Source: a virus (lineage: Duplodnaviria; Heunggongvirae; Uroviricota; Caudoviricetes). From it: a DNA stretch of 64,000 nucleotides. The notes below the pieces were generated by a model that worked only from the letters and a program-made list of their open reading frames with translations, did no database searches and had not been told where the DNA came from. Position 1 is the stretch's first letter. Each line of letters starts with the position of its first letter. The translations under genes were made by a program, and so were the position numbers. The stretch lies in IMG/VR virus record IMGVR_UViG_3300048865_000005; one strand, given 5' to 3'. Positions 8,842 to 40,982 of the stretch are shown one piece after another.

Positions 8842-9066
8842 TTAGTTCAAGCGAGCGATAGACTTTTTCGCTTCTTCTAAAGTGCTCTTGATACGCTGCT
8901 TACCATCGCTGACACGATGTACACGGTATCCGCCTTCAGGACGCTTTGTGATAGTGCCTAAATAGTTACCGGAGGCATCGTACATACGGCGAACCCGCTT
9001 TGCAGCTTCTTCGTTTGCATCACTAAACCGACCAACTACTACCTTAGCCATAATTAACTTCCCCAC
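8842..9066 (-). CDS. small DNA-binding protein with integrase-arm/AP2-like domain
   Basis: Pattern GGYRVHRVSDGKQRIKSTLEEAKKS resembles integrase N-terminal arm-type / AP2-like DNA-binding domains. No catalytic domain present. Confidence 0.4.
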   Translation of the reverse strand: MGKLIMAKVVVGRFSDANEEAAKRVRRMYDASGNYLGTITKRPEGGYRVHRVSDGKQRIKSTLEEAKKSIARLN

Positions 9067-9219
9067 TTCTTAGTTATGAGAAGAAGTATTAAAACTCCTT
9101 CTTTCTTCCTGTACTGTTACGACGTAATTTTGAACAAAAAGTTCGAAACTATCTATCGGGCACAATAAAGGAATCTTCGTTTGTCAGTTAGCGGTGAAGT
9201 GCTAACTGGAATGTCGGCT

Positions 9220-9247
9220 ATCATAACAGCGGGCACAGCTATGTCAA
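9220..9247 (-). promoter_or_regulatory. sigma70-type promoter (TTGACA-N16-TATGAT)
   Basis: Minus strand reads TTGACAtagctgtgcccgctgtTATGAT. Would give a ~150-nt structured leader for the 8842-9066 gene. Confidence 0.45.
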
Positions 9248-9419
9248 TACCCTAAGTGAAAATATTTTCAGGGCATGCCGCAGGTTCGTAAGTGCTTGAT
9301 TGCAAACGAAGATTTGAGGAAAGAGCGCTAAGGCGTGTTTGACTAAAACGAAAAAATCGTTTATCGTTTTTGAACTGAACGAGGCTCCTCCGCAAAAGAA
9401 GCCCCTTCAGGTGACGAGC

Positions 9420-9722
9420 TTACAAAATATTAAAAAGCTCTAACTGCATGTCATCTGCAACCGCTGTAATCGTTTTTCCGTGCTTCTTGATTACACGCTT
9501 AGCCATTTTCGCATTCAGCATTGTCGTAGAATGCTGGATGTGAAGTGCTTTCGCTATGAGCCGTATCGTGCTTTCAGATACCGGCAAAATATCTACAATA
9601 TTCGTATCCACTTTGTAAAATCCATCTACACGCCCTATTACGGGTGTTCCATCTGATGTAAAGATAATCCTTACATTGTACTCTTTATCGTGTAATTCAT
9701 TTTCACGAGTCGGCATTTCCAA
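9420..9722 (-). CDS. hypothetical protein (100 aa), first gene left of the ori-like noncoding region
   Basis: ORF with ATG. Possible regulator, no motif confirmed. Confidence 0.5.
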   Translation of the reverse strand: MEMPTRENELHDKEYNVRIIFTSDGTPVIGRVDGFYKVDTNIVDILPVSESTIRLIAKALHIQHSTTMLNAKMAKRVIKKHGKTITAVADDMQLELFNIL

Positions 9723-10059
9723 AATACTCCTAGCCGTGTAAGGCTTTACGTGCTCGAACCTCTCCCCTTGTGAGAGACCTCCGGTCCTTCGAGCTATGCG
9801 GTTTTATGCCGCATCTGGTGACTATCAGCCGTCACTAGCTACTACTGAGCCTTATGTGACGTTCTGCGGCAGTATATTACCGTTCTGCGTCACTAAGATG
9901 GCATTTTACTACTATCCATTTGGTTTGCAAGCTACTTAACAAAATATTTTGATAATTTTTAGGAACTTTTTCTATTTGTATGATATTTGGGCGCGTGCTA
10001 ATCAGTATCACATCGCTATCATACCAATGCGCTGTACGTCTGTACAGTGCTTTTCCTCT

Positions 10060-10270
10060 AGTCTACCTCTCTACTTCTTTGCTTATTGAAGCAAGTGCTT
10101 CAATGCTTCAATGCTTGCTTGCTTAATGAACCAATGAATTGTGTGCTTGCGTTAGCACTTCAATACTTCAGTGCTTGCTGAAGTGCTTACTTAGGTATTT
10201 ACTTGCTTAAGTACGTACTTGCTCAACTGCTTGCTTCTGCGCATAAGGAAGTACTTACTATATCGGCCTC
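10060..10270. repeat. iteron array upstream of parA (TTGAAGCA / TGCTTCAA half-sites)
   Basis: More than 10 direct and inverted copies of GCTTCAAT/TTGAAGCA-like 8-mers. Includes the near-perfect inverted repeat ATTGAAGCAAGTGCTTCAAT at 10085-10104. Confidence 0.7.
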
Positions 10271-10297
10271 TCATTGATTAGCTTTAAGGATGGAATT

Positions 10298-10927
10298 ATG
10301 GAAGTTATCGCTATGGCTTCGCGGAAGGGTGGAGTAGGCAAGACGAACACGACCGAGAATTTAGGAGTGGAACTCTCTCGCCGGGGCTATAAAGTGATGC
10401 TACTAGATACTGACGATCAAGGGAGCCTTACGCAGTGGTGGAATGATCGTAAAGAGGAAGAACCCTCATTGATGCAGGTTGAGTTCCAAGAGCTTCCAAG
10501 GGCTTTACAATTGCTCGAAAGTAACGGCTTTGATTACGTGTTAATCGACACTCCCCCAATGGCTAACGAGGTAATACGCTTCGTTACTCGCTATGCGGAC
10601 CTAGTAGTAATTCCCTGTAAAGCTGGTTCCTCTGACCTAAAGGCAATAACCCAGACTATCTCTATCGTCAAAGAAGCCAAGAAGCCTTATGTTTTCCTGC
10701 TGAACGAAGTCATGCCCAACGCTAAAATCACAAAAGACGTAATGATAGCCCTGTCTCAACATGGCAAGCTCTGTCCGATCATCCCGGCACGGACTGTATA
10801 TAAGGAAGCAGGCTTCAGCGGTCTAACACCTATAGATATGCGCGTAAGCTCCCCTGCTTCATTGGAATTCAGACGTTTAGCGGATTACATCCTTAGCGAA
10901 ATTTCAACACTACAAGCAAGTGCTTGA
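10298..10927 (+). CDS. parA: ParA/Soj-family partition ATPase (type Ib-like, no N-terminal HTH)
   Basis: Deviant Walker A box ASRKGGVGKT. About 210 aa. ATG at 10298 with AAGGA RBS (the ORF track's TTG at 10274 is less likely). Flanked by iteron arrays. Confidence 0.8.
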   Translation: MEVIAMASRKGGVGKTNTTENLGVELSRRGYKVMLLDTDDQGSLTQWWNDRKEEEPSLMQVEFQELPRALQLLESNGFDYVLIDTPPMANEVIRFVTRYADLVVIPCKAGSSDLKAITQTISIVKEAKKPYVFLLNEVMPNAKITKDVMIALSQHGKLCPIIPARTVYKEAGFSGLTPIDMRVSSPASLEFRRLADYILSEISTLQASA

Positions 10928-11040
10928 GTGCTTATTGAAGCATTGATATATTGAAGCATTGATTGAAGCAAGCAGTGAAGCATTTGCTGAAGTACGTAAC
11001 CATGTATTGAAGTACATGCTTCTTTGCTTAAGTAAAGAAG
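10925..11040. repeat. iteron array downstream of parA (direct repeats ATTGAAGCA)
   Basis: ttattgaagcattgatatattgaagcattgattgaagcaagcagtgaagcatttgctgaagta... with at least 6 half-sites. Confidence 0.7.
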
Positions 11041-11050
11041 GAATGAATGA

Positions 11051-11332
11051 ATGACCAAGAAAGCTTACCAGTTGGAAGACTTAACTAAGTCCCTAAATGC
11101 TCAGCCTGTAGTGACTACAGCGGCTCAGTTGGCAGTAGTTGAGCCAACACCAGCAACACAGTCCACACCATCAGCGGATCAAATTTTTGCAGGTGCCCAT
11201 AAGACGCTCAGTGTGCGTACCGATCCAGCACGCTATAAGAAGCTTCGCCGGGCTTGCTTGGACTATGACAAGACAGGGCAAGATATTTTTATTGAAGCCC
11301 TAGACGACTGGTTCAAAAAACATAACCTATAA
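11051..11332 (+). CDS. small centromere-binding protein candidate (ParG-like ribbon-helix-helix)
   Basis: 93 aa: Ala/Thr/Pro-rich N-terminus, then C-terminal KTLSVRTDPARYKKLRRACLD...GQDIFIEALDDWFKK, consistent with a beta-strand plus two helices (RHH). Sits immediately downstream of parA. Confidence 0.5.
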   Translation: MTKKAYQLEDLTKSLNAQPVVTTAAQLAVVEPTPATQSTPSADQIFAGAHKTLSVRTDPARYKKLRRACLDYDKTGQDIFIEALDDWFKKHNL

Positions 11333-11337
11333 GACTA

Positions 11338-11365
11338 AGCCCCTTCACAGGGGCTTCATTGTTTC
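11338..11365 (+). terminator. rho-independent terminator (AGCCCCT-TCAC-AGGGGCT then T-rich)
   Basis: 7-bp GC stem after the par operon. Possibly bidirectional, since the convergent 11369-12031 gene ends here. Confidence 0.5.
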
Positions 11366-11368
11366 TGT

Positions 11369-12031
11369 TCACCGTATAACATCAAGTATCACGATATTGT
11401 TGTAGCCGTTCGCTACTGCTGCCTTGATTGCTGCCTCTACTGCTTCGGTCTCGTTGCGTGTCTCTTCTGTATGTTCAAACTGTACGTTAAACCCGCTTCC
11501 ATCCTTCGGACGGCATGAGAGCTTTACACGGATTTTGTGCGGCTTAGCTCCACGACGAGGCTTGTTCTCAACAGGTATAAGCTGAAAGTCATCATTGCTT
11601 GAATCATTCACTGCTTGAGCGGGTACTTCAGTAGTTACTTCAGCAAATGCTTCGGTAGGCACTTCCTTTGGCAATTCATTCAGTGCTTCCTTCTGTACTT
11701 CTTGAGGCGTTGAAGTGCTTGCTTCTTTGCTTATTGAAGCACTTGCTTCAATACTTGCCTGCTTACTTGCTTTCGTCGGCTTTTTAGTCGTCGGCTTCTT
11801 TTCTGCCGCTTTCTTTTCTACTGGCTTATCTGCTGCTTTGGTTGTAGCAGGCTTCTTTGCCGGGGTTTTCTTCGGAGTAGGGGAGGTCTTTTCCTCCTTC
11901 TTCGCAGGCGTACCAAACGCTTCAGCAAAAGCGCGCTCAGCCTCTTCTTTCTGTGCTCTTCTTATCATCTCAGCCTCATGCGCGGATTGTTCTTTTTTAG
12001 AAATACGAGAGTGGTTTTGACGGTACTGCAT
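11369..12031 (-). CDS. K/P/A/T-rich basic protein (histone H1/AlgP-like low complexity) with structured C-terminal domain
   Basis: Repeats of the KKPxxxK type (TPKKTPAKKPATTKAADKPVEKKAAEKKPTTKKPTK). An iteron palindrome lies in its coding sequence at 11733-11752, encoding ASIEASAS. Confidence 0.6.
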   Translation of the reverse strand: MQYRQNHSRISKKEQSAHEAEMIRRAQKEEAERAFAEAFGTPAKKEEKTSPTPKKTPAKKPATTKAADKPVEKKAAEKKPTTKKPTKASKQASIEASASISKEASTSTPQEVQKEALNELPKEVPTEAFAEVTTEVPAQAVNDSSNDDFQLIPVENKPRRGAKPHKIRVKLSCRPKDGSGFNVQFEHTEETRNETEAVEAAIKAAVANGYNNIVILDVIR

Positions 12032-12213
12032 GTCCGCTCCTTATCACAGAGATATTTTTAACTATAGCTATTCACTAGAGATGTGCCAGTTAGAGAGGCT
12101 GGCACACACATTAAGAGTGTTCTCACTCTAGATAATCGTCATAGATTTTTAAATTGAGCATACCGTTAAGATTGGCAGAAATTACACAACTTCCATGTTC
12201 GTTTGTATAAAGA

Positions 12214-12576
12214 TCATTCTTCAAGCTCGGTGTATTCGCGCGGCGGCGGCGGTGTATCACCGTTGTAGCCGTCCACTTCATCATCATGCGGCAGAACGTA
12301 CAGCTTTTTGAATTTGATCAAGTCGGTGATCGTCGCATAGCTGCCAACCGACATACCGTGAACCACCTGACCGCATTCATTCACATAGGTGGCATGCGCC
12401 TGCCAAGCCCGAACATCGAACATCGCACGGCGGGAGCGCCAAGCGCCTTTCACCGGATAGACGCTCTCAGGCGACCAAGTGAGCGCTTGCCCGTTACGCT
12501 CAGGGAACGCCGCTTGAAGCATCGCGCACAGCTTTCTGACCTTGTAGCCTGCCGGTTTACGCTTTTCCATTTTCAT
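12214..12576 (-). CDS. hypothetical protein encoded by a GC-rich island (moron-like)
   Basis: ORF of about 120 aa with GGGAG RBS. Local GC is clearly higher (about 55-60% by eye) than the flanks (about 38-42%). No domain recognised. Confidence 0.55.
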   Translation of the reverse strand: MKMEKRKPAGYKVRKLCAMLQAAFPERNGQALTWSPESVYPVKGAWRSRRAMFDVRAWQAHATYVNECGQVVHGMSVGSYATITDLIKFKKLYVLPHDDEVDGYNGDTPPPPREYTELEE

Positions 12577-12591
12577 CTCCCGTTGACGGCT

Positions 12592-12951
12592 CTACAGGCC
12601 GTCTATCTCATTGACTTTAGAAAGAACATCTACAGCCTGCTCCTCAGCCTTAACAAGTAAGGCGACAGCCTTGGCTATATCTACGTTCGTATTTGCAGCG
12701 GAACGTTTAGCTTCTTGGGCCTGAACGAACGACTGCAATGCAGATACTAAAACTTCACGCTCTTGCTTCCATTCTTCCAGTACATCACGTCTCATGTCTT
12801 CTTGACGTTGTATTTCTTTCTGCAACTCTATGTTGTCTTTTCGAAGCTCTTCTATCGTTTGGCCGCGTTGAGTTTTGTGGTAGTTAGCTTGATCTTTCAG
12901 AGCCTTCTCATTACTCAGGTCGTGCTCAAGCTGAGCAATACGCTCTTTCAA
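12592..12951 (-). CDS. coiled-coil protein
   Basis: 119-aa highly charged E/K/Q-rich heptad-like sequence. The in-frame region upstream of the TTG start encodes IEASIEASASIS from the iteron palindrome, so the true start is uncertain. Confidence 0.5.
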   Translation of the reverse strand: MKERIAQLEHDLSNEKALKDQANYHKTQRGQTIEELRKDNIELQKEIQRQEDMRRDVLEEWKQEREVLVSALQSFVQAQEAKRSAANTNVDIAKAVALLVKAEEQAVDVLSKVNEIDGL

Positions 12952-13039
12952 ATCACTTATTGAAGTACTTCCTTCATTGCTTATTGAAGCGCTTGCTTCA
13001 ATGCTTGCTTCAATAACGGGTTTTCAGATTTTGCCATTT

Positions 13040-13345
13040 TTAAAAATTCTCTATCTTTGCGAGCCGCCAAAGCTCTGATGTGAACCATTCTACAAGGGAA
13101 TTCTGTTCAATAATAGTGTCAATATTATAAATATCTGTAATTTTCTCTATCGTATTACAAGGGCTTATAATTTCTATCAATGTACATCGCCATTCCATCT
13201 CCTCTGTACCTGCATAGTCCCAATCACTCGCCCATGTGGTAGGGGAGGGAGGTATGCGAATTATTGAACAAATTTCTAAGGAAAATGTTGCAGGCACGTC
13301 AATATATCGATCCGTTGAGATCGTTGCTTTTATGTCATAAAACAC
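13040..13345 (-). CDS. hypothetical protein
   Basis: 101-aa ORF. Confidence 0.45.
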   Translation of the reverse strand: MFYDIKATISTDRYIDVPATFSLEICSIIRIPPSPTTWASDWDYAGTEEMEWRCTLIEIISPCNTIEKITDIYNIDTIIEQNSLVEWFTSELWRLAKIENF

Positions 13346-13367
13346 TGCCGACTTTTAACCTTTCACC

Positions 13368-13550
13368 TTACGCTTCCATCCATTCCACTGCCTCATCTAC
13401 ACCAGCGAATAGCTTAGAATTTTTACTGTCCTTTGAAACTCGTTTTTCACCTTTCTGACCAACTTCTTTTACAATAAAAGCTTTTGGAGTTTCCCGTAAT
13501 ATCTGAACTGCAATAAGCCAGCCGGATTTAGTTGCTAATATCCTTCTCAA
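13368..13550 (-). CDS. hypothetical protein
   Basis: 60-aa ORF. Confidence 0.4.
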   Translation of the reverse strand: MRRILATKSGWLIAVQILRETPKAFIVKEVGQKGEKRVSKDSKNSKLFAGVDEAVEWMEA

Positions 13551-13656
13551 CCATTAATACTTTTCCTTATACTTACCTGAACGTTTTGCTTCTTTCTTTC
13601 TATCTACAAATGTAGCAGGCTTATTGAAGCTATTAAAGAACTTAGCAACTGTGTTT

Positions 13657-14031
13657 TTAACCTTTGTATTCATGCCCGACAATACCTCCGTGACCTACAA
13701 TTACCGCTTCAATGATGCCTTTAGGGACATACGGGTATACTGTTTGTGTAGGCTTATCAGACTCTTCTGCATAAGGTAGAAGCTCTTCGATACACTCAGA
13801 AGGAAAGCCAATCTCGAACGATTCATACTCCGCATATGGTAGCGTCTCCCTTGGCATACAATAGTGATATTGGGAAGCCTGAATAGATAACGAAATACCA
13901 TCTCCTAATACTATTCGCTCTGTATGGCGTAGCCTGTAAGCTGAAGAAATGTCTGGTAATGTAGCCGGGAATGGACCATTCGACTCAACACCTTCTTCTA
14001 ACCACTCAGCCAAACTTTTTTCTCTGTTCAT
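13657..14031 (-). CDS. hypothetical protein (124 aa)
   Basis: ORF with GGAG RBS. Promoter-like motif at about 14046-14090 upstream. Confidence 0.5.
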   Translation of the reverse strand: MNREKSLAEWLEEGVESNGPFPATLPDISSAYRLRHTERIVLGDGISLSIQASQYHYCMPRETLPYAEYESFEIGFPSECIEELLPYAEESDKPTQTVYPYVPKGIIEAVIVGHGGIVGHEYKG

Positions 14032-14096
14032 TTCTATCTCTCCTTAGCGATTTTTACCAATGTTATCAGTGTTTATAATTTTATGCAAGTGGTATT

Positions 14097-14309
14097 TTAT
14101 TCTTCTTCATCTTTAGCTAATAACTCAATTTCTTCAGCTTCCTCTAACTCTCGCTCTAATTGTTCCCACCGCTCTTGTTGAGCCTTCTTGAACTCTTCTT
14201 TCTCTGCTTCTGACATAGCATCCCATTCTTCTTGTTGTTGGGCTAACCGCTCTTCGCGTGCTTTCATAGCACGTTCGTATTCTCTTTTCTTAAATTCTTC
14301 GAGATTCAT
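14097..14309 (-). CDS. highly acidic coiled-coil protein
   Basis: 70 aa dominated by E/K/Q (EEWDAMSEAEKEEFKKAQQERWEQLERELEEAEE). Confidence 0.45.
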   Translation of the reverse strand: MNLEEFKKREYERAMKAREERLAQQQEEWDAMSEAEKEEFKKAQQERWEQLERELEEAEEIELLAKDEEE

Positions 14310-14983
14310 ATATAACTATTTATCCTATCTACACTTAATTCCTGAATCATCAGATGCTCAAATAATCTAAAATAATCTCTTTCTATAGTAATCATTTGTA
14401 GATTATCTGAAACATCCCCTCGTCCACCAAATACATTAAAGCCTCCTCTTGCTTGAGGAATGTCGTAGATAATATGGAAGTCGTCTATCTTAGACGCCCA
14501 ATACACGCTCTTATTTCCTACGAATACTAAATATTTTTTATTATCAAAGAAATAAACATCACACTCTTGCATTGCTCCAACTACTAGACGAATTGCCTCG
14601 TAAGGCCACTGATAACAGAACGTATCATATACTCTAGGTTTTCTCGGTGCCCTAGGTTTTTTCAACTTTTGAACTATCTCTTTATTTTCAATAATTTTTA
14701 TATTATCGATCATTACTGAGATAGTATGCAGAACGTCTTCATGAAACCACTCTGAATACCCATCTTCTTTTTCTAAAATCTCATATTTCCTAGGAAGAAA
14801 TGCTTTATGTAGTTTCTTCTCTAAAGCTAAAGCGGAAGATTCGTCTTCGCACTCTTTATAAAAGCTCTCTTGGAAGTTGAAGCAATTTCCTAACTGATTC
14901 CAGCGATTTTCAAGATTTACAGCTTTCCCAATTTTAACTCTAGGTTCAGTTAAATGTTTCATGAAATAAACAAATGCAGTCAT
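14306..14983 (-). CDS. T5orf172 / GIY-YIG-like domain protein
   Basis: N-terminus FVYFMKHLTEPRVKIGKAVNLENRWNQL matches the T5orf172 (GIY-YIG superfamily) signature. 225 aa. Confidence 0.55.
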   Translation of the reverse strand: MTAFVYFMKHLTEPRVKIGKAVNLENRWNQLGNCFNFQESFYKECEDESSALALEKKLHKAFLPRKYEILEKEDGYSEWFHEDVLHTISVMIDNIKIIENKEIVQKLKKPRAPRKPRVYDTFCYQWPYEAIRLVVGAMQECDVYFFDNKKYLVFVGNKSVYWASKIDDFHIIYDIPQARGGFNVFGGRGDVSDNLQMITIERDYFRLFEHLMIQELSVDRINSYI

Positions 14984-16255
14984 TTACGTACAAACCTTAT
15001 CTTCTTGGACAACACCGTCTAATCTGTATTTGATACCGACTGGAACAACACCAGCAGTACCGAACCGTTCCCTGAATTTACCGCCCATCGTATTACACAG
15101 AAGATTGAGATGTTCCAGCGGCACAATAAACGAGTCGTGCACCGGCAAACATGGAACGCCCCTCTCAACCATAGTAGACAAAACATCGCTAGCTAGATGA
15201 CTATCGGCATTTTGTAAAACTCTTCCAAACGAACCTTCTCGGCAAAACAAGTGCCTAAAGGTAGGGTATGCCCGGTACACCAGTTCCATGACTTGTGTTG
15301 CTGTACCAAGAGAAAACTTAAATTTTTCTTCATTTTTTAAATAATTAATTTCTTTTTGGATTGCTGCACGTGCTTTCTTCTCGTTATCGCAGTTGAACAT
15401 CATGTTCACAGCGAGCTTCACGATACGTCGATCTATTGGATTTTTCTCGTCTTCTAAAATTCCTGAGTAAACATCTAGAGGAATTTCATTGGAGTCTAAG
15501 CCTTCCATTGCAGCGGCAATACGAAAATGTAGGTTTGAGTAGTCGATTTCGACGACTGGCTTACCGTCTATCGTAATGTCTAGCCTTGCGTTATCATCCC
15601 TGTTCTTTATTGCCAACACATCGGCATGATAGAAGCGACCACCATGCTCGAAAGATTCATTGAAAATTCTGCAATAAATATTTGTTAGTAATTTTCCTGT
15701 ACCGTCTCGAATTTCTGAAGATTCATTCAATTTATTCAGATTTCTTACAGATTCCGACATTCTCTCAATATGTTCAGAATTTCTATAGGAAATACTTTTT
15801 TTATCAGAATCTCGTAATTCGATGACTTCTACTTGTTCTAGATAATCTTGTTCAGCTAATTCAACAATTTCTTGAAACCCCCATTCATTCAGGAATTTAT
15901 CTGTAGGTTCGATCCAAGATGATGACCTATTGTTAAGAAATACTGAAGATTTACCAATATGGTTGGTTATAAGACCCTGATTTTCAAGGAAATTTACAGC
16001 TTTTATAACTCTTTCAGGATTTATCTTCTTTCTACCGACACCGTAAGCAGAATTCTTACTACGACAGTAGGCAAGAGTACTCCCTTTCCGTAGGCAAGCT
16101 ATGAGGTTATATACAACAACAGACAACACTTCATTGTCTTTGTACGGATACCAACGAACCCGGTTACTTACTGACTTTCTGACACGCAATCTGTATGTCA
16201 GTAATCGACTATACCGCATAGCATCAGAACCACTCTCCATCCTCACATCCTGCAT
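14984..16255 (-). CDS. large early protein of unknown function (423 aa), possible DNA-binding/replication initiation role
   Basis: First gene of the leftward early block. GGAGG RBS. No confident motif (PVHDSF, NLHFRIAAA noted). Confidence 0.6.
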   Translation of the reverse strand: MQDVRMESGSDAMRYSRLLTYRLRVRKSVSNRVRWYPYKDNEVLSVVVYNLIACLRKGSTLAYCRSKNSAYGVGRKKINPERVIKAVNFLENQGLITNHIGKSSVFLNNRSSSWIEPTDKFLNEWGFQEIVELAEQDYLEQVEVIELRDSDKKSISYRNSEHIERMSESVRNLNKLNESSEIRDGTGKLLTNIYCRIFNESFEHGGRFYHADVLAIKNRDDNARLDITIDGKPVVEIDYSNLHFRIAAAMEGLDSNEIPLDVYSGILEDEKNPIDRRIVKLAVNMMFNCDNEKKARAAIQKEINYLKNEEKFKFSLGTATQVMELVYRAYPTFRHLFCREGSFGRVLQNADSHLASDVLSTMVERGVPCLPVHDSFIVPLEHLNLLCNTMGGKFRERFGTAGVVPVGIKYRLDGVVQEDKVCT

Positions 16256-16396
16256 ACCGGGCCTCCATATCAGGGTGTTTTTTCTCTAGAACCCACGTGG
16301 CACTAAGGCTAGAGGGCTATTTTCATCGACATTTTCTGTCAATTCGAAGCGAATCCTACAGGAAAAAATAAATTCCTCAAGAATTTCTAAAAATTT

Positions 16397-16456
16397 AAGT
16401 TTTTTGAAAATTTCTAAAAAATCTTGTTGACGCTCTCGTTAGGCGATGGCAGTATG
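16397..16456 (+). promoter_or_regulatory. divergent control region: degenerate copy of the TTTTTTGAAA motif plus a weak sigma70-like promoter (TTGACG-N17-CAGTAT)
   Basis: AAGTTTTTTGAAAATTTC at 16397-16414. TTGACG at 16427-16432. Start of the rightward gene block. Confidence 0.3.
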
Positions 16457-16491
16457 CCGTCCCATCGAGCCTTGAGAAAAATGTCAACTTT

Positions 16492-16698
16492 TTGGAGAAC
16501 ATTGCTGTGAGAAGGGCTGTAGAGCTTGTAGGTGCAGGGTTAACGCTAGAGCTTTCCAAAGTGACGGCAGTTAGGACAAAACAAAAAATGATCCATTTTG
16601 ATGAATTACCAGATGGGACGTGGAGACTCATTTACAACGGAGAACAAATTCCAGATTTTTCGAAAATTACAGAATTTAAGATAGTTCGAGAAAATTAA
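16492..16698 (+). CDS. hypothetical protein
   Basis: 68-aa ORF. The real start may be GTG at 16507. Confidence 0.45.
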   Translation: MENIAVRRAVELVGAGLTLELSKVTAVRTKQKMIHFDELPDGTWRLIYNGEQIPDFSKITEFKIVREN

Positions 16699-16701
16699 AA
16701 A

Positions 16702-16908
16702 ATGGAAGTAATCCGTCAGCACGTAGGAATAATGAGTAAAGACGAATTTCAAGATTGGGTTGCTGGGCAAGAAGCTATCCGCGAGATAAGTAAATTTCTA
16801 TTCGGTGTCCGTGATGGTATCAGTGGTCGGGTGTTCGGTTACTACGCTCTGCTTGATTTGAGTCCCTTAGTTAAAGGTCAGAAGATAGTAGAGGTCGGTG
16901 GCCTGTGA
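16702..16908 (+). CDS. hypothetical protein
   Basis: 68-aa ORF. Confidence 0.5.
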   Translation: MEVIRQHVGIMSKDEFQDWVAGQEAIREISKFLFGVRDGISGRVFGYYALLDLSPLVKGQKIVEVGGL

Positions 16909-17318
16909 GAATTCCAGTACATTATTTGCCAAACCCATTCGAAGTGAACATTTTGGGAACGACTGAACAGCTTACTCGCTGGCACGTTTCTGAAGCAATC
17001 CGTAAGGGCATACAGAAGAGCTTACCTTTGCTACTAGACGAGGATTATTCTAATGTCTGGCTACATGCGTACAGAATTTCTTATTTCGTTTTAAACGCTG
17101 AAAAGCTACCGAAGGAACCTATTAAGGTAGACATTCAGCTCGCCCATGATGCGCTATCGTACACTTTGCCTGTAGATGGGTGGTATATTTTAGCAAAATC
17201 TATTTATGTGCTTGACAAGAGCATTGATGTAGTAGATGATAGGGAACTCTTGAGCCGAGTAATTAACCTACAAATTCTTGGGAGTTATGAAGAAATGTGC
17301 TTTCGGGGTGTAGTATGA
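16905..17318 (+). CDS. hypothetical protein (137 aa)
   Basis: ORF whose start overlaps the upstream stop. Confidence 0.55.
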   Translation: MRIPVHYLPNPFEVNILGTTEQLTRWHVSEAIRKGIQKSLPLLLDEDYSNVWLHAYRISYFVLNAEKLPKEPIKVDIQLAHDALSYTLPVDGWYILAKSIYVLDKSIDVVDDRELLSRVINLQILGSYEEMCFRGVV

Positions 17319-26811: not shown

Positions 26812-27044
26812 AGCCTACGGATTACGCTTTCTTCTTAGAAATGGCAAAGAAACATGAGAACGATGGAACAATTCAACACTTCGTTCTCAATACTAATCCA
26901 AACAGTAACTTTGAATCAGTATTAAAAGAAATGGTTGATAGATTGTTAGCCGATAAACGCGGGACTATTCAAGAGAATCAGAAAATGTCTTCAATACTGA
27001 AAAAGCACGGACTATATTATTTAATTTTAGAGGAGGATATTTGA
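26808..27044 (+). CDS. hypothetical protein
   Basis: 78-aa ORF. Confidence 0.5.
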   Translation: MKPTDYAFFLEMAKKHENDGTIQHFVLNTNPNSNFESVLKEMVDRLLADKRGTIQENQKMSSILKKHGLYYLILEEDI

Positions 27045-28033
27045 GTCTAAAAGCAATTGTAGATACCGATTTTATAAAATATGCAGTAGCTTGTGCAGGC
27101 GAAAAAAGATCGATCCAAGTAATCCATAAGCAAAGCGGTAGAGAAAAAGAGTTCAAAACCCGTACAGAGTTTTACGGAAGAGATAAAAAGAAGTCAGGTG
27201 GTTGGTTAGGCGAGCTTAATAAGAATCGAACCTCCCCGTTTATGTTAGACGAATTCGAAATCGTCGATGTACAAACTCCCGAACCTCTAAACAACGTTCT
27301 CCACTCTGCAAAGTTAATGTTTCAGCGAACATTAGAGAAAGTCGGTACAACTAAATATAAAGGCTATATTGGAAAGGGTGATAGCTTCCGGGTAAACCTT
27401 TCCACCATCATTAAATACAAAGGCAATCGTGAAGAGACACTTCGTGCAGTATACATGCAGGAAGTTGAAGACTATCTAATTAAGAAATTTAATTTAGAAA
27501 CAGTAAGAGATTACGAAGCTGACGATGTATGTGTAATGGATTGCTATAAGAATCCTGATAATGTACTTGTCGGAGTAGATAAAGATTACGCTGGGCAACC
27601 GGTAAGGTGGTTTAATCCTAATAATCCTGATGTTGGTATTCAAGATTGCGATTGCTTCGGCAAGTTGTTCTTAAGTGCTAAAGGTCATGTTAAGGGAATT
27701 GGAAGAGCTTTCCTCTACCATCAGATAGGTAGCGGAGACTCTAGCGATAATTATAAAGCCAACTCTGCCAGTGAGCGTGCATGGGGAGATAAGAGTTCAT
27801 TCGATATTCTTAGCCAAGCCACAAACGATAAGGAAGCTCTAGAGGGGTTGGTTCGAATCTACAAGGAAGAACTCTACCCTGAACCCGTAATGATTAAGGG
27901 TTGGCGTGGTGACGAGTTCGAAGTCGATTGGCTGTACGTTCTCGAAGAAAACTTTCAAATGGCACGCATGAAGCGATTTGAAGGCGATGATGTGTACATT
28001 AAAGAAGTTCTGCAAAGGTTCGGTCTCTTATGA
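27041..28033 (+). CDS. 5'-3' exonuclease / flap endonuclease (FEN, RNase H-like)
   Basis: N-terminal AIVDTDFIKYAVA (compare LLVDGSSLAFRA). YEADDV (GYEADDVIA motif). VLVGVDKDYAG (TxDKD motif). Confidence 0.65.
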   Translation: MSLKAIVDTDFIKYAVACAGEKRSIQVIHKQSGREKEFKTRTEFYGRDKKKSGGWLGELNKNRTSPFMLDEFEIVDVQTPEPLNNVLHSAKLMFQRTLEKVGTTKYKGYIGKGDSFRVNLSTIIKYKGNREETLRAVYMQEVEDYLIKKFNLETVRDYEADDVCVMDCYKNPDNVLVGVDKDYAGQPVRWFNPNNPDVGIQDCDCFGKLFLSAKGHVKGIGRAFLYHQIGSGDSSDNYKANSASERAWGDKSSFDILSQATNDKEALEGLVRIYKEELYPEPVMIKGWRGDEFEVDWLYVLEENFQMARMKRFEGDDVYIKEVLQRFGLL

Positions 28034-28611
28034 TTCCGAGCCAAGCAGATATTGAGAAACGGCAAGCCAATCTCGCTAAGTTTCTGAAGCAAATCGATCC
28101 AGTCACAGGCAAAGCCCCTGAAAAGACAATGGTACAGGTTGTACGCAGTGCCATACGTCAAGCATGGATGAAGAGTCCGACAAAGTTAGCGTATCTGTAT
28201 CAACACACAGAGGCAGATATGGATAACAACACACGTACTAAATGGAAAGTACGGTGTGAGATTTGCGGTGAACATTTCAAAGTAAATGAAGTTGAGATTG
28301 ACCACATCAGAGGCAATCACTCATTCACGCGTGTTGAAGATTTTGAAGATTATTTTAACAACATTTTGATGGTTGGTTTTGATGATCTTCAGGTTCTATG
28401 TAAAGACGGTTGCCATGCAATCAAAACATTATCTGAACGTCTTGGTATTACTTTCGAAGAGGCAAAAGTGGAGAAGGAAGTAATCGAAATATGTAAGACG
28501 AAGAAAGATAAAGACTTCATTAAAAAGAATGGCCTAATTCCTGAATCGAATGCAGATAAGAGGAGGGCACAAGTAAGGAGAATACTTAGTGACAGTACGG
28601 AGAAAAAGTAA
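28030..28611 (+). CDS. HNH endonuclease (homing-endonuclease-like)
   Basis: CEICGEHF...EIDHIRGNH...DGCHAIK matches the HNH CxxC/DH/N/CxxCH arrangement. Confidence 0.6.
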   Translation: MIPSQADIEKRQANLAKFLKQIDPVTGKAPEKTMVQVVRSAIRQAWMKSPTKLAYLYQHTEADMDNNTRTKWKVRCEICGEHFKVNEVEIDHIRGNHSFTRVEDFEDYFNNILMVGFDDLQVLCKDGCHAIKTLSERLGITFEEAKVEKEVIEICKTKKDKDFIKKNGLIPESNADKRRAQVRRILSDSTEKK

Positions 28612-29221
28612 ATTAATTTTTGGCGTTGGAATTAATGATGCTGATTATGTAGTTGCAACGAATGTACAAATTGATGGAAAGCATAAGAGATTACGGATTT
28701 GTCCTTTCTACGCTAGATGGAAGAAAATGCTTGAGCGGTGCTACTCAGGAAGTTGGCACACACTCAAACCAACGTACAAAGATTGTTACGTTTGTGAAGA
28801 GTGGAAAACTTTCTCAAACTTTAAATCTTGGATGGAGAAGCAAGATTGGGAAGGTAAGCAGTTAGATAAAGACATACTCTTCCGTAACAATAAAGAATAT
28901 TCGCCGCTGACGTGTGTTTTTGTTGACTCTCATGTAAATAGCTTCCTGATTGAAAGAGACAGTAAGCGTGGTGAATACATGATTGGCGTCCACTGGCATA
29001 AGCGAGACAAAAGGTTTACTTCCGCTTGTGGTGATGGTCTAGGTAAGACAACTTATCTAGGTAATTTCAATACAGAACTTGAAGCTCATCTTGCTTGGCT
29101 TTCATATAAATTAGAACGAGCTAAAGAATTAGCAGCAAAACAAACTGATTCACGAGTCGCAAAAGCACTTATTGATCGTTACCAAAATTATCATGTATTT
29201 CAAGAAGCAGAGGCAGCATGA
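28589..29221 (+). CDS. HNH-family / AP2-domain endonuclease-like protein
   Basis: N-terminal RICPFYARWKKMLERCYS...DCYVCEEWKTFSNFKSWM (HNH_3-like). C-terminal YIGVHWHKRDKRFTSACGDGLGKTTYLGNFNTELEAHLAW (AP2-like). Confidence 0.55.
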   Translation: MTVRRKSKLIFGVGINDADYVVATNVQIDGKHKRLRICPFYARWKKMLERCYSGSWHTLKPTYKDCYVCEEWKTFSNFKSWMEKQDWEGKQLDKDILFRNNKEYSPLTCVFVDSHVNSFLIERDSKRGEYMIGVHWHKRDKRFTSACGDGLGKTTYLGNFNTELEAHLAWLSYKLERAKELAAKQTDSRVAKALIDRYQNYHVFQEAEAA

Positions 29222-40295: not shown

Positions 40296-40982
40296 ATGAA
40301 TAGTAATAAAGTGTTCAACTCTCAAATAAGAGAAGTTGGTAGCTTCGCTACGCATGTAAGTAATGAACAAATTAAATTAGAACCAATGTTCTTTAATTGT
40401 GATTTGGATTATGCCTACAGTAACGGAGGACTAATTACAAAAGCATTCATAGATACACTTCCAGCTTATTGGTTTCTAGAAGATTGTGTCTTTGATAGTC
40501 GTGTACACATGCTAATGCCGGGGTGGTATCCGGCGATTCCGGGATTTCACCACGACGACGTACCACGTCCAGATATTCCAGTAGGGCAGCACTTTATTAC
40601 AGCAGGGCAACCAGACTACGACAATCCACGATACTACTCGGAACACATCTTAGGGTTAGTTAACGCGGACGTTTGCCCGACAGAGTTTGCTCTAGGTACT
40701 GCCGAGTTCTCACGTATCCCGGATGGTGAATTGATCTACCGGAAATGGCACGAAGAGGTATTGAATCATCTCGAAGCGGGACGAATGGAGCGCTACACCG
40801 CAAAAGACCGCACGCTAATTGAAATGGACTGGCAAACATTCCACCAAGGGACGGCAGCAGTAAGTAACGGTTGGCGATGGTTTGGACGAGTGAGCCGACA
40901 CACCAATAGGGTGAAGAAAGTAACTAACGAAATGAGGCAGCAGGTACAAGTGTACTTGGAGTTTCCTATGGAGGGATGGTAA
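40296..40982 (+). CDS. hypothetical protein, possibly cupin/2OG-Fe(II) oxygenase-like
   Basis: H-x-D (GFHHDD) and a distal His (TFHQG) about 110 aa apart, plus RVSRH. Speculative. Confidence 0.4.
   Translation: MNSNKVFNSQIREVGSFATHVSNEQIKLEPMFFNCDLDYAYSNGGLITKAFIDTLPAYWFLEDCVFDSRVHMLMPGWYPAIPGFHHDDVPRPDIPVGQHFITAGQPDYDNPRYYSEHILGLVNADVCPTEFALGTAEFSRIPDGELIYRKWHEEVLNHLEAGRMERYTAKDRTLIEMDWQTFHQGTAAVSNGWRWFGRVSRHTNRVKKVTNEMRQQVQVYLEFPMEGW

Follow-up and report, generated by a model that had tools for sequence, protein, structure and literature searches.

A GC-rich gene shared with Pseudomonas conjugative megaplasmids in the early region of an AT-rich myovirus and its possible link to DNA-end metabolism

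Morons, in the concept of Hendrix and Juhala, are extra genes that lie between the conserved genes of lambdoid and HK97-like phages, and in their classical form they come with a promoter and a terminator of their own and are often expressed from a prophage. Phages also encode small inhibitors of the RecBCD nuclease, including lambda Gam, P22 Abc2 and T7 gp5.9, of which Gam inhibits SbcCD too. A further set of small genes, ArdA and other establishment and anti-defence genes, is found in the leading regions of conjugative plasmids (Samuel et al. 2024, PMC11541004).

Here we describe a GC-rich gene at positions 12214-12576 (minus strand) of a 64-kb stretch of phage DNA, which was analysed as a whole and is referred to as the window. 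The phenomenon is a moron-like accessory gene, and it encodes an uncharacterised protein family with an unrecognised fold. Like morons, the gene is a single imported extra gene of deviant composition; it was not found in the phages that share its polymerase, primase or tail sheath. Unlike morons, it has no promoter or terminator that we could find, is embedded in the early operon of a virulent-type myovirus, and was exchanged exactly within the limits of the ORF, its start codon having been built anew. Its product resembles Gam, Abc2 and gp5.9 in being a small protein encoded in or beside phage recombination modules, and the role that we propose is of the same kind; membership in that group was rejected, as sequence and fold similarity were both lacking, and the resemblance is functional and hypothetical. 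With ArdA-type genes it shares small size, occurrence on both conjugative plasmids and phages and a place in co-oriented arrays of small ORFs, and one chimeric protein (P0009) joins the two; unlike ArdA, the window protein has no ArdA domain. ArdA antirestriction (PF07275) was accordingly discarded as an identity, given that no Pfam hit was obtained, the core of the protein has a pI of 9.7 and PF07275 occurs only in the non-homologous N-terminal half of P0009. The protein also belongs, by sequence or fold, to none of the catalogued defence or anti-defence families. Its true homologues, all unannotated, include the plasmid protein WP_054902295.1 and hypothetical proteins of the phages U9, U7 and PfAn1, from which the window copy differs by the N-terminus MEKRKP in place of M and by a genome that is 15-20 GC points lower.

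The GC-rich gene and its transcriptional setting

A sequence-only reading of this DNA had pointed to a GC-rich ORF, and the ORF is present at 12214-12576, on the minus strand, together with the GC-rich runs and the peptide MEKRKPAGYKVRKL... quoted for it. Several lines of evidence mark it as protein-coding: the ORF listing, outlying GC and GC3 values, a conserved family, dN/dS and an AF2 structure model. Its GC content is 55.9%, versus 41.0% for the window; compared with all segments of 363 nt, this corresponds to a z-score of 3.9, with just 0.08% of the segments equally high, and the GC peak of the window (57.6%) falls within the ORF. With the remaining 87 non-overlapping ORFs (80 aa or longer) as the reference, both its GC (mean of the others 40.8%, sd 3.4, maximum 46.9; z 4.5) and its GC3 (63.6%, versus a mean of 37.3%, sd 6.2, maximum 55.8; z 4.2) were far outside the distribution. 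The codon usage of the Pseudomonas megaplasmid pBYT1-1 explains the gene better than phage usage does, with a log-likelihood difference per codon of -0.20 that is the most extreme of the 88 ORFs, the others averaging +0.25. These calculations bear out the compositional anomaly that had been claimed, with codons that are plasmid-like; the immediate neighbours, however, had been put at 38-42% GC and are at 45-47%. Elsewhere in the window, 52% GC is attained in one place only (40498-40881), within the ORF at 40296-40982, which encodes a 228-aa protein of phrog_1843, a PHROG without a functional annotation.

The ORF has two candidate start codons, a first ATG at 12576 that yields 120 aa and a second at 12570 that yields 118 aa (MEKRKPAGYKV...). 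The GGGAG that had been proposed as its ribosome-binding site is indeed found at 12581-12577, where it touches the ATG at 12576 and lies 6 nt ahead of the ATG at 12570. Because of this 6-nt spacing, translation likely starts at ATG 12570, as the earlier reader had assumed, giving a product of 118 aa. The first part of the product, some 95 aa, is a basic core (pI 9.7); the C-terminal tail behind it is acidic, rich in Pro and disordered, and its last residues are EYTELEE.

Across comparisons of the nearest copies, which are separated by dS of 0.15-0.25, dN/dS was 0.11-0.22, and therefore the gene is functional and held under purifying selection. At the level of sequence comparison this shows the ORF at 12214-12576 to be a genuine gene under purifying selection. 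A different account would be that there is no gene here at all, the ORF having arisen by chance in a GC-rich noncoding insert, or that the true gene is the antisense ORF of 124 aa at 12286-12660 (plus strand) that appears in the ORF list. Long ORFs do occur on both strands in GC-rich DNA, and the antisense ORF is such a by-product of high GC; however, amino-acid conservation extends down to about 30% identity and over more than 30 clusters solely in the minus-strand frame, and both the dN/dS of 0.11-0.22 and the confident AF2 model speak against a chance origin, so that this account is effectively refuted and retains a negligible probability. With conservation and purifying selection all in the minus-strand frame, 12286-12660 was rejected as a gene. 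The antisense ORF is longer than the real gene, and a naive longest-ORF rule would pick it.

The gene is part of a minus-strand operon. The preceding gene, at 12592-12951 on the same strand, encodes a 119-aa coiled-coil protein (taken from the ORF list, with weak coiled-coil-type Pfam noise), and ends 15 nt short of the first ATG of the GC-rich gene; the same gene order is repeated on an independent contig (L023). The noncoding region upstream of the gene had been called unusual, but no such region exists: the preceding ORF has its stop at 12592, which leaves a gap of just 15-21 nt. A consensus scan found no sigma-70-like site upstream of the gene on the minus strand, non-canonical promoters being outside the reach of such a scan. 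The 182-nt intergenic region downstream (12032-12213, minus strand), subjected to a promoter and terminator scan, RNA folding and an Rfam search, gave no Rfam match, no significant structure and no intrinsic terminator. It contains a single 9-bp hairpin (12081-12107; fold z-score of the region -1.1), which has no U-tract and is not an intrinsic terminator, and a weak sigma-70-like site running from 12089 to 12061, ahead of the next gene at 11369-12031. That next gene (minus strand), directly downstream of the GC-rich gene, encodes a 220-aa Lys/Ala/Pro-rich, histone-H1-like protein with a weak HC2 hit. As a promoter and terminator of its own are missing, the gene is a moron by composition only: it has the deviant composition of a moron in the strict sense and is not an autonomous transcription unit. 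The earlier description of a recently acquired foreign moron thus stands for the foreign origin, on the evidence of DNA identity, codon usage and absence from the phages that share its polymerase, primase or tail sheath, and falls for the autonomous transcription unit.

Horizontal acquisition as a single open reading frame

A megablast search with positions 9000-17000 of the window as the query against 72,556 plasmids matched at 12214-12553 only. This segment is 91.8% identical at the nucleotide level to a hypothetical gene of two Pseudomonas conjugative megaplasmids, pBYT1-1 of Pseudomonas sp. BYT-1 and the BYT-5 plasmid, whose product (WP_054902295.1) shares 88% amino-acid identity with the window protein. 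Over the same 340 nt, a copy on L004, a metagenomic contig of 49.5% GC with plasmid- or ICE-like gene content, is 94.4% identical. No match to 9000-17000 was obtained by megablast among 50,697 phage records. The transferred segment (12214-12553, minus strand), as delimited by megablast, pairwise and four-way alignments and local blastn against all loci, extends from donor-type codon 2 through the stop codon, and the homology ends sharply on both sides; local blastn found no resemblance between the rest of the window and the pBYT1-1, BYT-5 and L004 loci. The L004 and pBYT1-1 loci themselves have just 385 nt in common, with unrelated flanks there too. Homology that is limited to the ORF, both in the window and between L004 and pBYT1-1, argues for circulation of the gene as a one-ORF module.

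The 5′ end of the gene (12554-12581, minus strand) appears to be new, as judged from the alignments and from direct reading of the sequence. The donor ATG is replaced by CCG (Pro) in the window copy, and therefore translation must begin 6-8 codons further upstream; in the alignments, these N-terminal codons (M(KM)EKRKP) and the adjoining GGGAG had no clear homology to the donor. Substitutions specific to the window copy comprised 4 GC-to-AT versus 11 AT-to-GC changes, and thus the amelioration toward AT that we looked for was not seen. An identical protein is encoded on two further contigs, and one of them, a JGI contig, has the same gene order, which argues that the arrangement in the window is not an assembly chimera.

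Given these comparisons, we are confident that the gene was acquired horizontally, very probably as a one-ORF cassette drawn from a pool common to Pseudomonas-type (50-64% GC) conjugative plasmids and phages, and a recent date for the acquisition is supported. The recipient is a 41%-GC, Pseudomonas-phage-like myovirus, and the donor start codon was lost. The gene now starts from a new upstream ATG behind GGGAG, is in all probability co-transcribed with the minus-strand early genes of the phage, and has stayed under purifying selection without drifting to the AT-rich composition of its new genome. This history makes the locus an unusually clean and datable case of gene flow between the conjugative megaplasmid pool and a virulent-type phage of very different base composition, in which the ORF-exact exchange and the rebuilt start codon illustrate how single genes circulate among unrelated mobile elements.

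The recipient phage has no nucleotide-level relative in the phage collection, as judged by megablast of 28 kb of the window. Its DNA polymerase, primase-helicase and tail sheath are 61%, 48% and 46% identical in amino acids to those of the nearest phages, which by these proteins are the 90-100-kb Pseudomonas myoviruses Y1-MI, UAVern, ventosus, PAK_P1 and M1; we infer a host that is Pseudomonas or related. Close relatives with an empty site were found neither in IMG/VR, by neighbour-protein scans and a degenerate pattern for the 3′ end of the preceding ORF, nor in scans of JGI metagenomes. Not one of the phages with a PolA, primase or sheath 42-61% identical to that of the window phage carries the gene, the collections searched containing no close relatives. 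It is present in 3 of the 50,697 phage records, none of which is related to the window phage, and this rarity is in keeping with the accessory status first suggested for it.

An uncharacterised protein family and its possible function

Homologues of the window protein formed 24 clusters in a phmmer search of 1.84 billion representative proteins and 34 in a profile search of 5.8 billion proteins, and all of them are unnamed and free of Pfam domains except for the chimera P0009. Only three cultured phages carry the gene, Pseudomonas aeruginosa vB_Pae_U9 and U7 (53% amino-acid identity) and P. fluorescens PfAn1 (40%), and two scans of GTDB detected no family member in 185,579 species-representative genomes. 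The window is the sole low-GC carrier, all other carrier loci having 50-64% GC. Family members are about 90-115 aa long, with P23, W32, G42, R45, D52, W56 and T80 invariant or nearly so and a consensus (A2/A3) that reads G-[YR]-K..KL..LLQ..FP...G..W.PE..YP..G.WR....D...W.A........[VG][GC][SW][YE]T[IM]TE[LC][IL]K. The window protein matches the family HMM over its full length (158.8 bits, E 1.9e-47), and each locus holds one copy. Two subfamilies can be told apart by the motifs VGSYATITELIK and GCWETMTECLK, and the close subfamily has an acidic, Pro-rich tail that ends in (E/K)YTEFEE. In two fusion members of 237-241 aa, no extra domain could be recognised.

Searches of the window protein and 31 family members against Pfam, PHROGs, NCBIfam and PADLOC returned no family; with the PADLOC defence HMMs, the window protein was unmatched and one of the 31 members gave a spurious hit (E 0.008). 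A sequence-profile search of the PDB returned nothing below E 0.13. The AF2 model of the window protein is confident (pLDDT 85.9) and found no fold match in the PDB or BFVD. Remote-homology and structure searches therefore agree with the initial impression that the product has no recognisable motif. Literature searches on the plasmid protein, the family, the plasmid and inhibitors of SbcCD found nothing relevant. The family is rare and has been conserved by selection; its fold is predicted with confidence, yet neither solved nor annotated proteins resemble it.

The phage loci that carry the family provide the main lead to its function. Among the temperate phages, vB_Pae_U9 has the gene after Erf and an exonuclease, and PfAn1 has it in the region bounded by replication protein P and RusA. 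Four uncultured, high-GC, lytic-type phages (L006, L016, L018 and L021), which represent three lineages, carry it next to genes for SbcD- and SbcC-like proteins. In L006 (family gene at 10001-10345), a Metallophos (SbcD-like) gene, a 114-aa ORF and an AAA_23 (SbcC-like) gene precede the family gene; in L018 (7241-7534), Metallophos and SMC_N/AAA_23 genes are followed by the family gene, which overlaps the SbcC stop; and in L016 (8001-8291) and L021 (7001-7300), the family gene follows Metallophos with a 4-nt overlap and is separated from AAA_23 by a small ORF. The L016 and L021 order has been kept even as the family protein diverged to 49% identity, and the SbcC-like proteins of the three lineages are 23-27% identical pairwise. 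SbcD/SbcC adjacency in 3 of about 9 independent phage contexts is unlikely to be due to chance, with a probability below 1% on a rough estimate that involved no formal test. Six other phage contexts, like every plasmid context, offer just small ORFs of no assigned role as neighbours. In the window, the surroundings of the GC-rich gene contain no SbcC- or SbcD-like gene, and the closest exonuclease ORF lies at a distance of 15 kb.

From this genomic context, which points to DNA-end or recombination metabolism rather than to the host-interaction, anti-defence or toxin classes first considered for the gene, we tentatively favour the view that the gene encodes a small alpha/beta protein of basic character whose C-terminal tail is acidic, and that this protein acts on DNA ends or in recombination, perhaps as a nuclease binder or modulator, although we put the chance of this at clearly below even. 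By analogy, a Gam-like modulator or inhibitor of SbcCD- or RecBCD-class nucleases is the most economical reading, because it explains both the linkage to recombination modules and the stand-alone spread on plasmids and phages; our confidence in it is low. The protein would bind or modulate an SbcCD/Mre11-Rad50-class or a RecBCD-class nuclease, and this modulation would shield or channel the DNA ends of mobile elements as they enter the cell or replicate, a role comparable to that of lambda Gam or P22 Abc. Since the gene occurs alone on plasmids and in the window phage, the target would probably be a host factor and not one particular phage partner. The SbcD/SbcC abutment in three lytic lineages, the Erf and exonuclease neighbours in U9, the P-RusA region in PfAn1, the core pI of 9.7 and the acidic tail are consistent with a modulator. 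Against it, the protein resembles neither Gam, Abc2 and gp5.9 nor any other protein of solved structure in sequence or fold, the window is without a nearby SbcC/D-like gene, and small ORFs are the only neighbours in the six phage contexts and the plasmid contexts mentioned. In addition, accessory genes often land where replication operons end, and the SbcD/SbcC adjacency could therefore be partly positional. Taken as a whole, an acquired gene that encodes a DNA-end modulator is the best explanation that we can offer, at somewhat less than even probability.

The same adjacency could be read more literally. The placement in L016, L018, L021 and L006 points to a possible third component or regulator of phage Mre11/Rad50. 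The family protein might serve this (gp46/47-like) recombination nuclease specifically, as a subunit or cofactor, and in the window phage have become a partnerless, nearly neutral passenger. Starts and stops that overlap and are translationally coupled with those of the SbcD/SbcC-like genes in L016, L021 and L018, and a place between SbcD and SbcC that is kept while the sequence diverges, would fit this. But the closest subfamily (70-94% identity) is found mostly on plasmids and in the window phage, without adjacent SbcCD; dN/dS of 0.18-0.22 in the comparisons that take in the window copy means that selection persists without SbcCD; and SbcC partners that are just 23-27% identical disfavour a specific obligate interface. 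We therefore consider a dedicated cofactor improbable.

The plasmid contexts raise other options. In the plasmid-like loci (pBYT1-1, L004, L014/15, L005 and L009), the gene lies within long co-oriented arrays of small ORFs, among which dnaB, rdgC, SprT-like, TraR/DksA, NinX, orphan cytosine methyltransferase, nucleotidyltransferase and CbtA genes are scattered; in 118 kb of pBYT1-1 annotation, a relaxase or oriT was not found. An anti-defence protein that phages express early and plasmids express on entry, and that acts on something else than end-processing nucleases (for example as an inhibitor of restriction, CRISPR, Lamassu/Wadjet-type SMC or abortive-infection systems), would account for the patchy, cassette-like spread on conjugative plasmids and phages, which is typical of anti-defence genes, for the small size of the gene and its position in the early operon of the window, and for the establishment-type plasmid neighbours (SprT-like, TraR/DksA, rdgC, orphan cytosine methyltransferases and NinX). 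It also draws on P0009 (L009, 14-325), a protein of 103 aa in which the N-terminal 55 residues of ArdA are joined in frame to the C-terminal 48 residues of the family and which is followed by the same NTP_transf_2/Polbeta gene that is located two genes downstream in L004. P0009 is either a natural deletion fusion or an assembly chimera; if natural, it would imply that ardA and a family gene are neighbours on some plasmid. Against an anti-defence role, P0009 may be just such a chimera or deletion, no model for ArdA or in Pfam, PADLOC or NCBIfam was hit, a core pI of 9.7 excludes an acidic DNA mimic, no solved anti-CRISPR or anti-restriction protein matches the fold, and the repeated SbcD/SbcC adjacency is left unexplained. 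We regard this role as unlikely, yet as the most serious competitor of a DNA-end modulator.

The unrecognised fold of a small early-region protein, and the CbtA-toxin and nucleotidyltransferase genes within a few kb in L004, might instead suggest a toxin, a superinfection-exclusion protein or a host-takeover factor with no tie to DNA ends. However, no antitoxin-like neighbour is conserved across contexts, neither a signal peptide nor a membrane segment is present in the sequence or the model, and large plasmids stably carry the gene singly, so that we judge a factor of this kind very improbable.

Returning to the DNA-end modulator, its widest form would see in the family a new class of small proteins, encoded by mobile elements, that attach to ATPase-nuclease machines of the Rad50/SMC type, adopt a new fold and travel as ORF-precise cassettes, which we put forward as a speculative and rather unlikely extension. 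If true, the targets would be SbcCD of the host, enzymes of the RecBCD kind or defences built on SMC proteins, such as Lamassu and Wadjet, and virulent phages, temperate phages and conjugative plasmids alike would use such proteins to shield DNA ends from these machines or to evade them. The SbcD/SbcC placement is a testable lead to a cofactor or inhibitor of DNA-end-processing machines, and if the lead holds, the family would be a new player in phage and plasmid establishment and possibly a tool for controlling RecBCD and SbcCD in Pseudomonas.

Other mobile-element-type genes in the window

The window also codes for ThyX, ribonucleotide reductase, RNA ligase and homing-endonuclease-like ORFs. 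One of the latter, at 14306-14983 (minus strand), is of the GIY-YIG/T5orf172 type and, at 33.5% GC, marks the regional minimum; two HNH ORFs at 28030-28611 and 28589-29221 (plus strand) lie directly behind an exonuclease gene (27041-28033). The homing-endonuclease-like ORFs are further signs of mobile-element traffic in the phage genome. An early protein of 423 aa (14984-16255, minus strand), which falls in phrog_4756, a PHROG without a functional annotation, has relatives in Vibrio, Aeromonas and Rheinheimera phages and not in Pseudomonas phages, and therefore the early region appears mosaic relative to the replication and structural modules.

Adjoining the GC-rich gene, the region 10060-13020 holds a type Ib-like, plasmid-type partition cassette. 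It includes ParA (10274-10927, plus strand) and a protein of 93 aa whose C-terminus is of the ribbon-helix-helix type (11051-11332, plus strand). Their counterparts on a plasmid of Pseudomonas oryzihabitans, 55% and 42% identical, are encoded by an adjacent gene pair next to the replication initiator gene. Clusters of repeats with an 8-nt periodicity (GCTTCAAT/GCTTGCTT) surround the partition genes, and palindromes of 20-21 nt (ATTGAAGC-N4-GCTTCAAT) are found at 10084-10104, 10949-10973, 11733-11753 and 12982-13002; one palindromic repeat falls inside the coding sequence of the histone-H1-like gene (11369-12031). These repeats and palindromes are candidate centromere or operator sites. Direct copies at 11713-11772 and 12963-13022, 1250 nt apart, flank the GC-rich gene and the coiled-coil ORF. 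At 45-47% GC versus 41% for the genome, the partition module may also be plasmid-derived, and its presence suggests that this myovirus, for all its virulent look, has a carrier or plasmid-like state.
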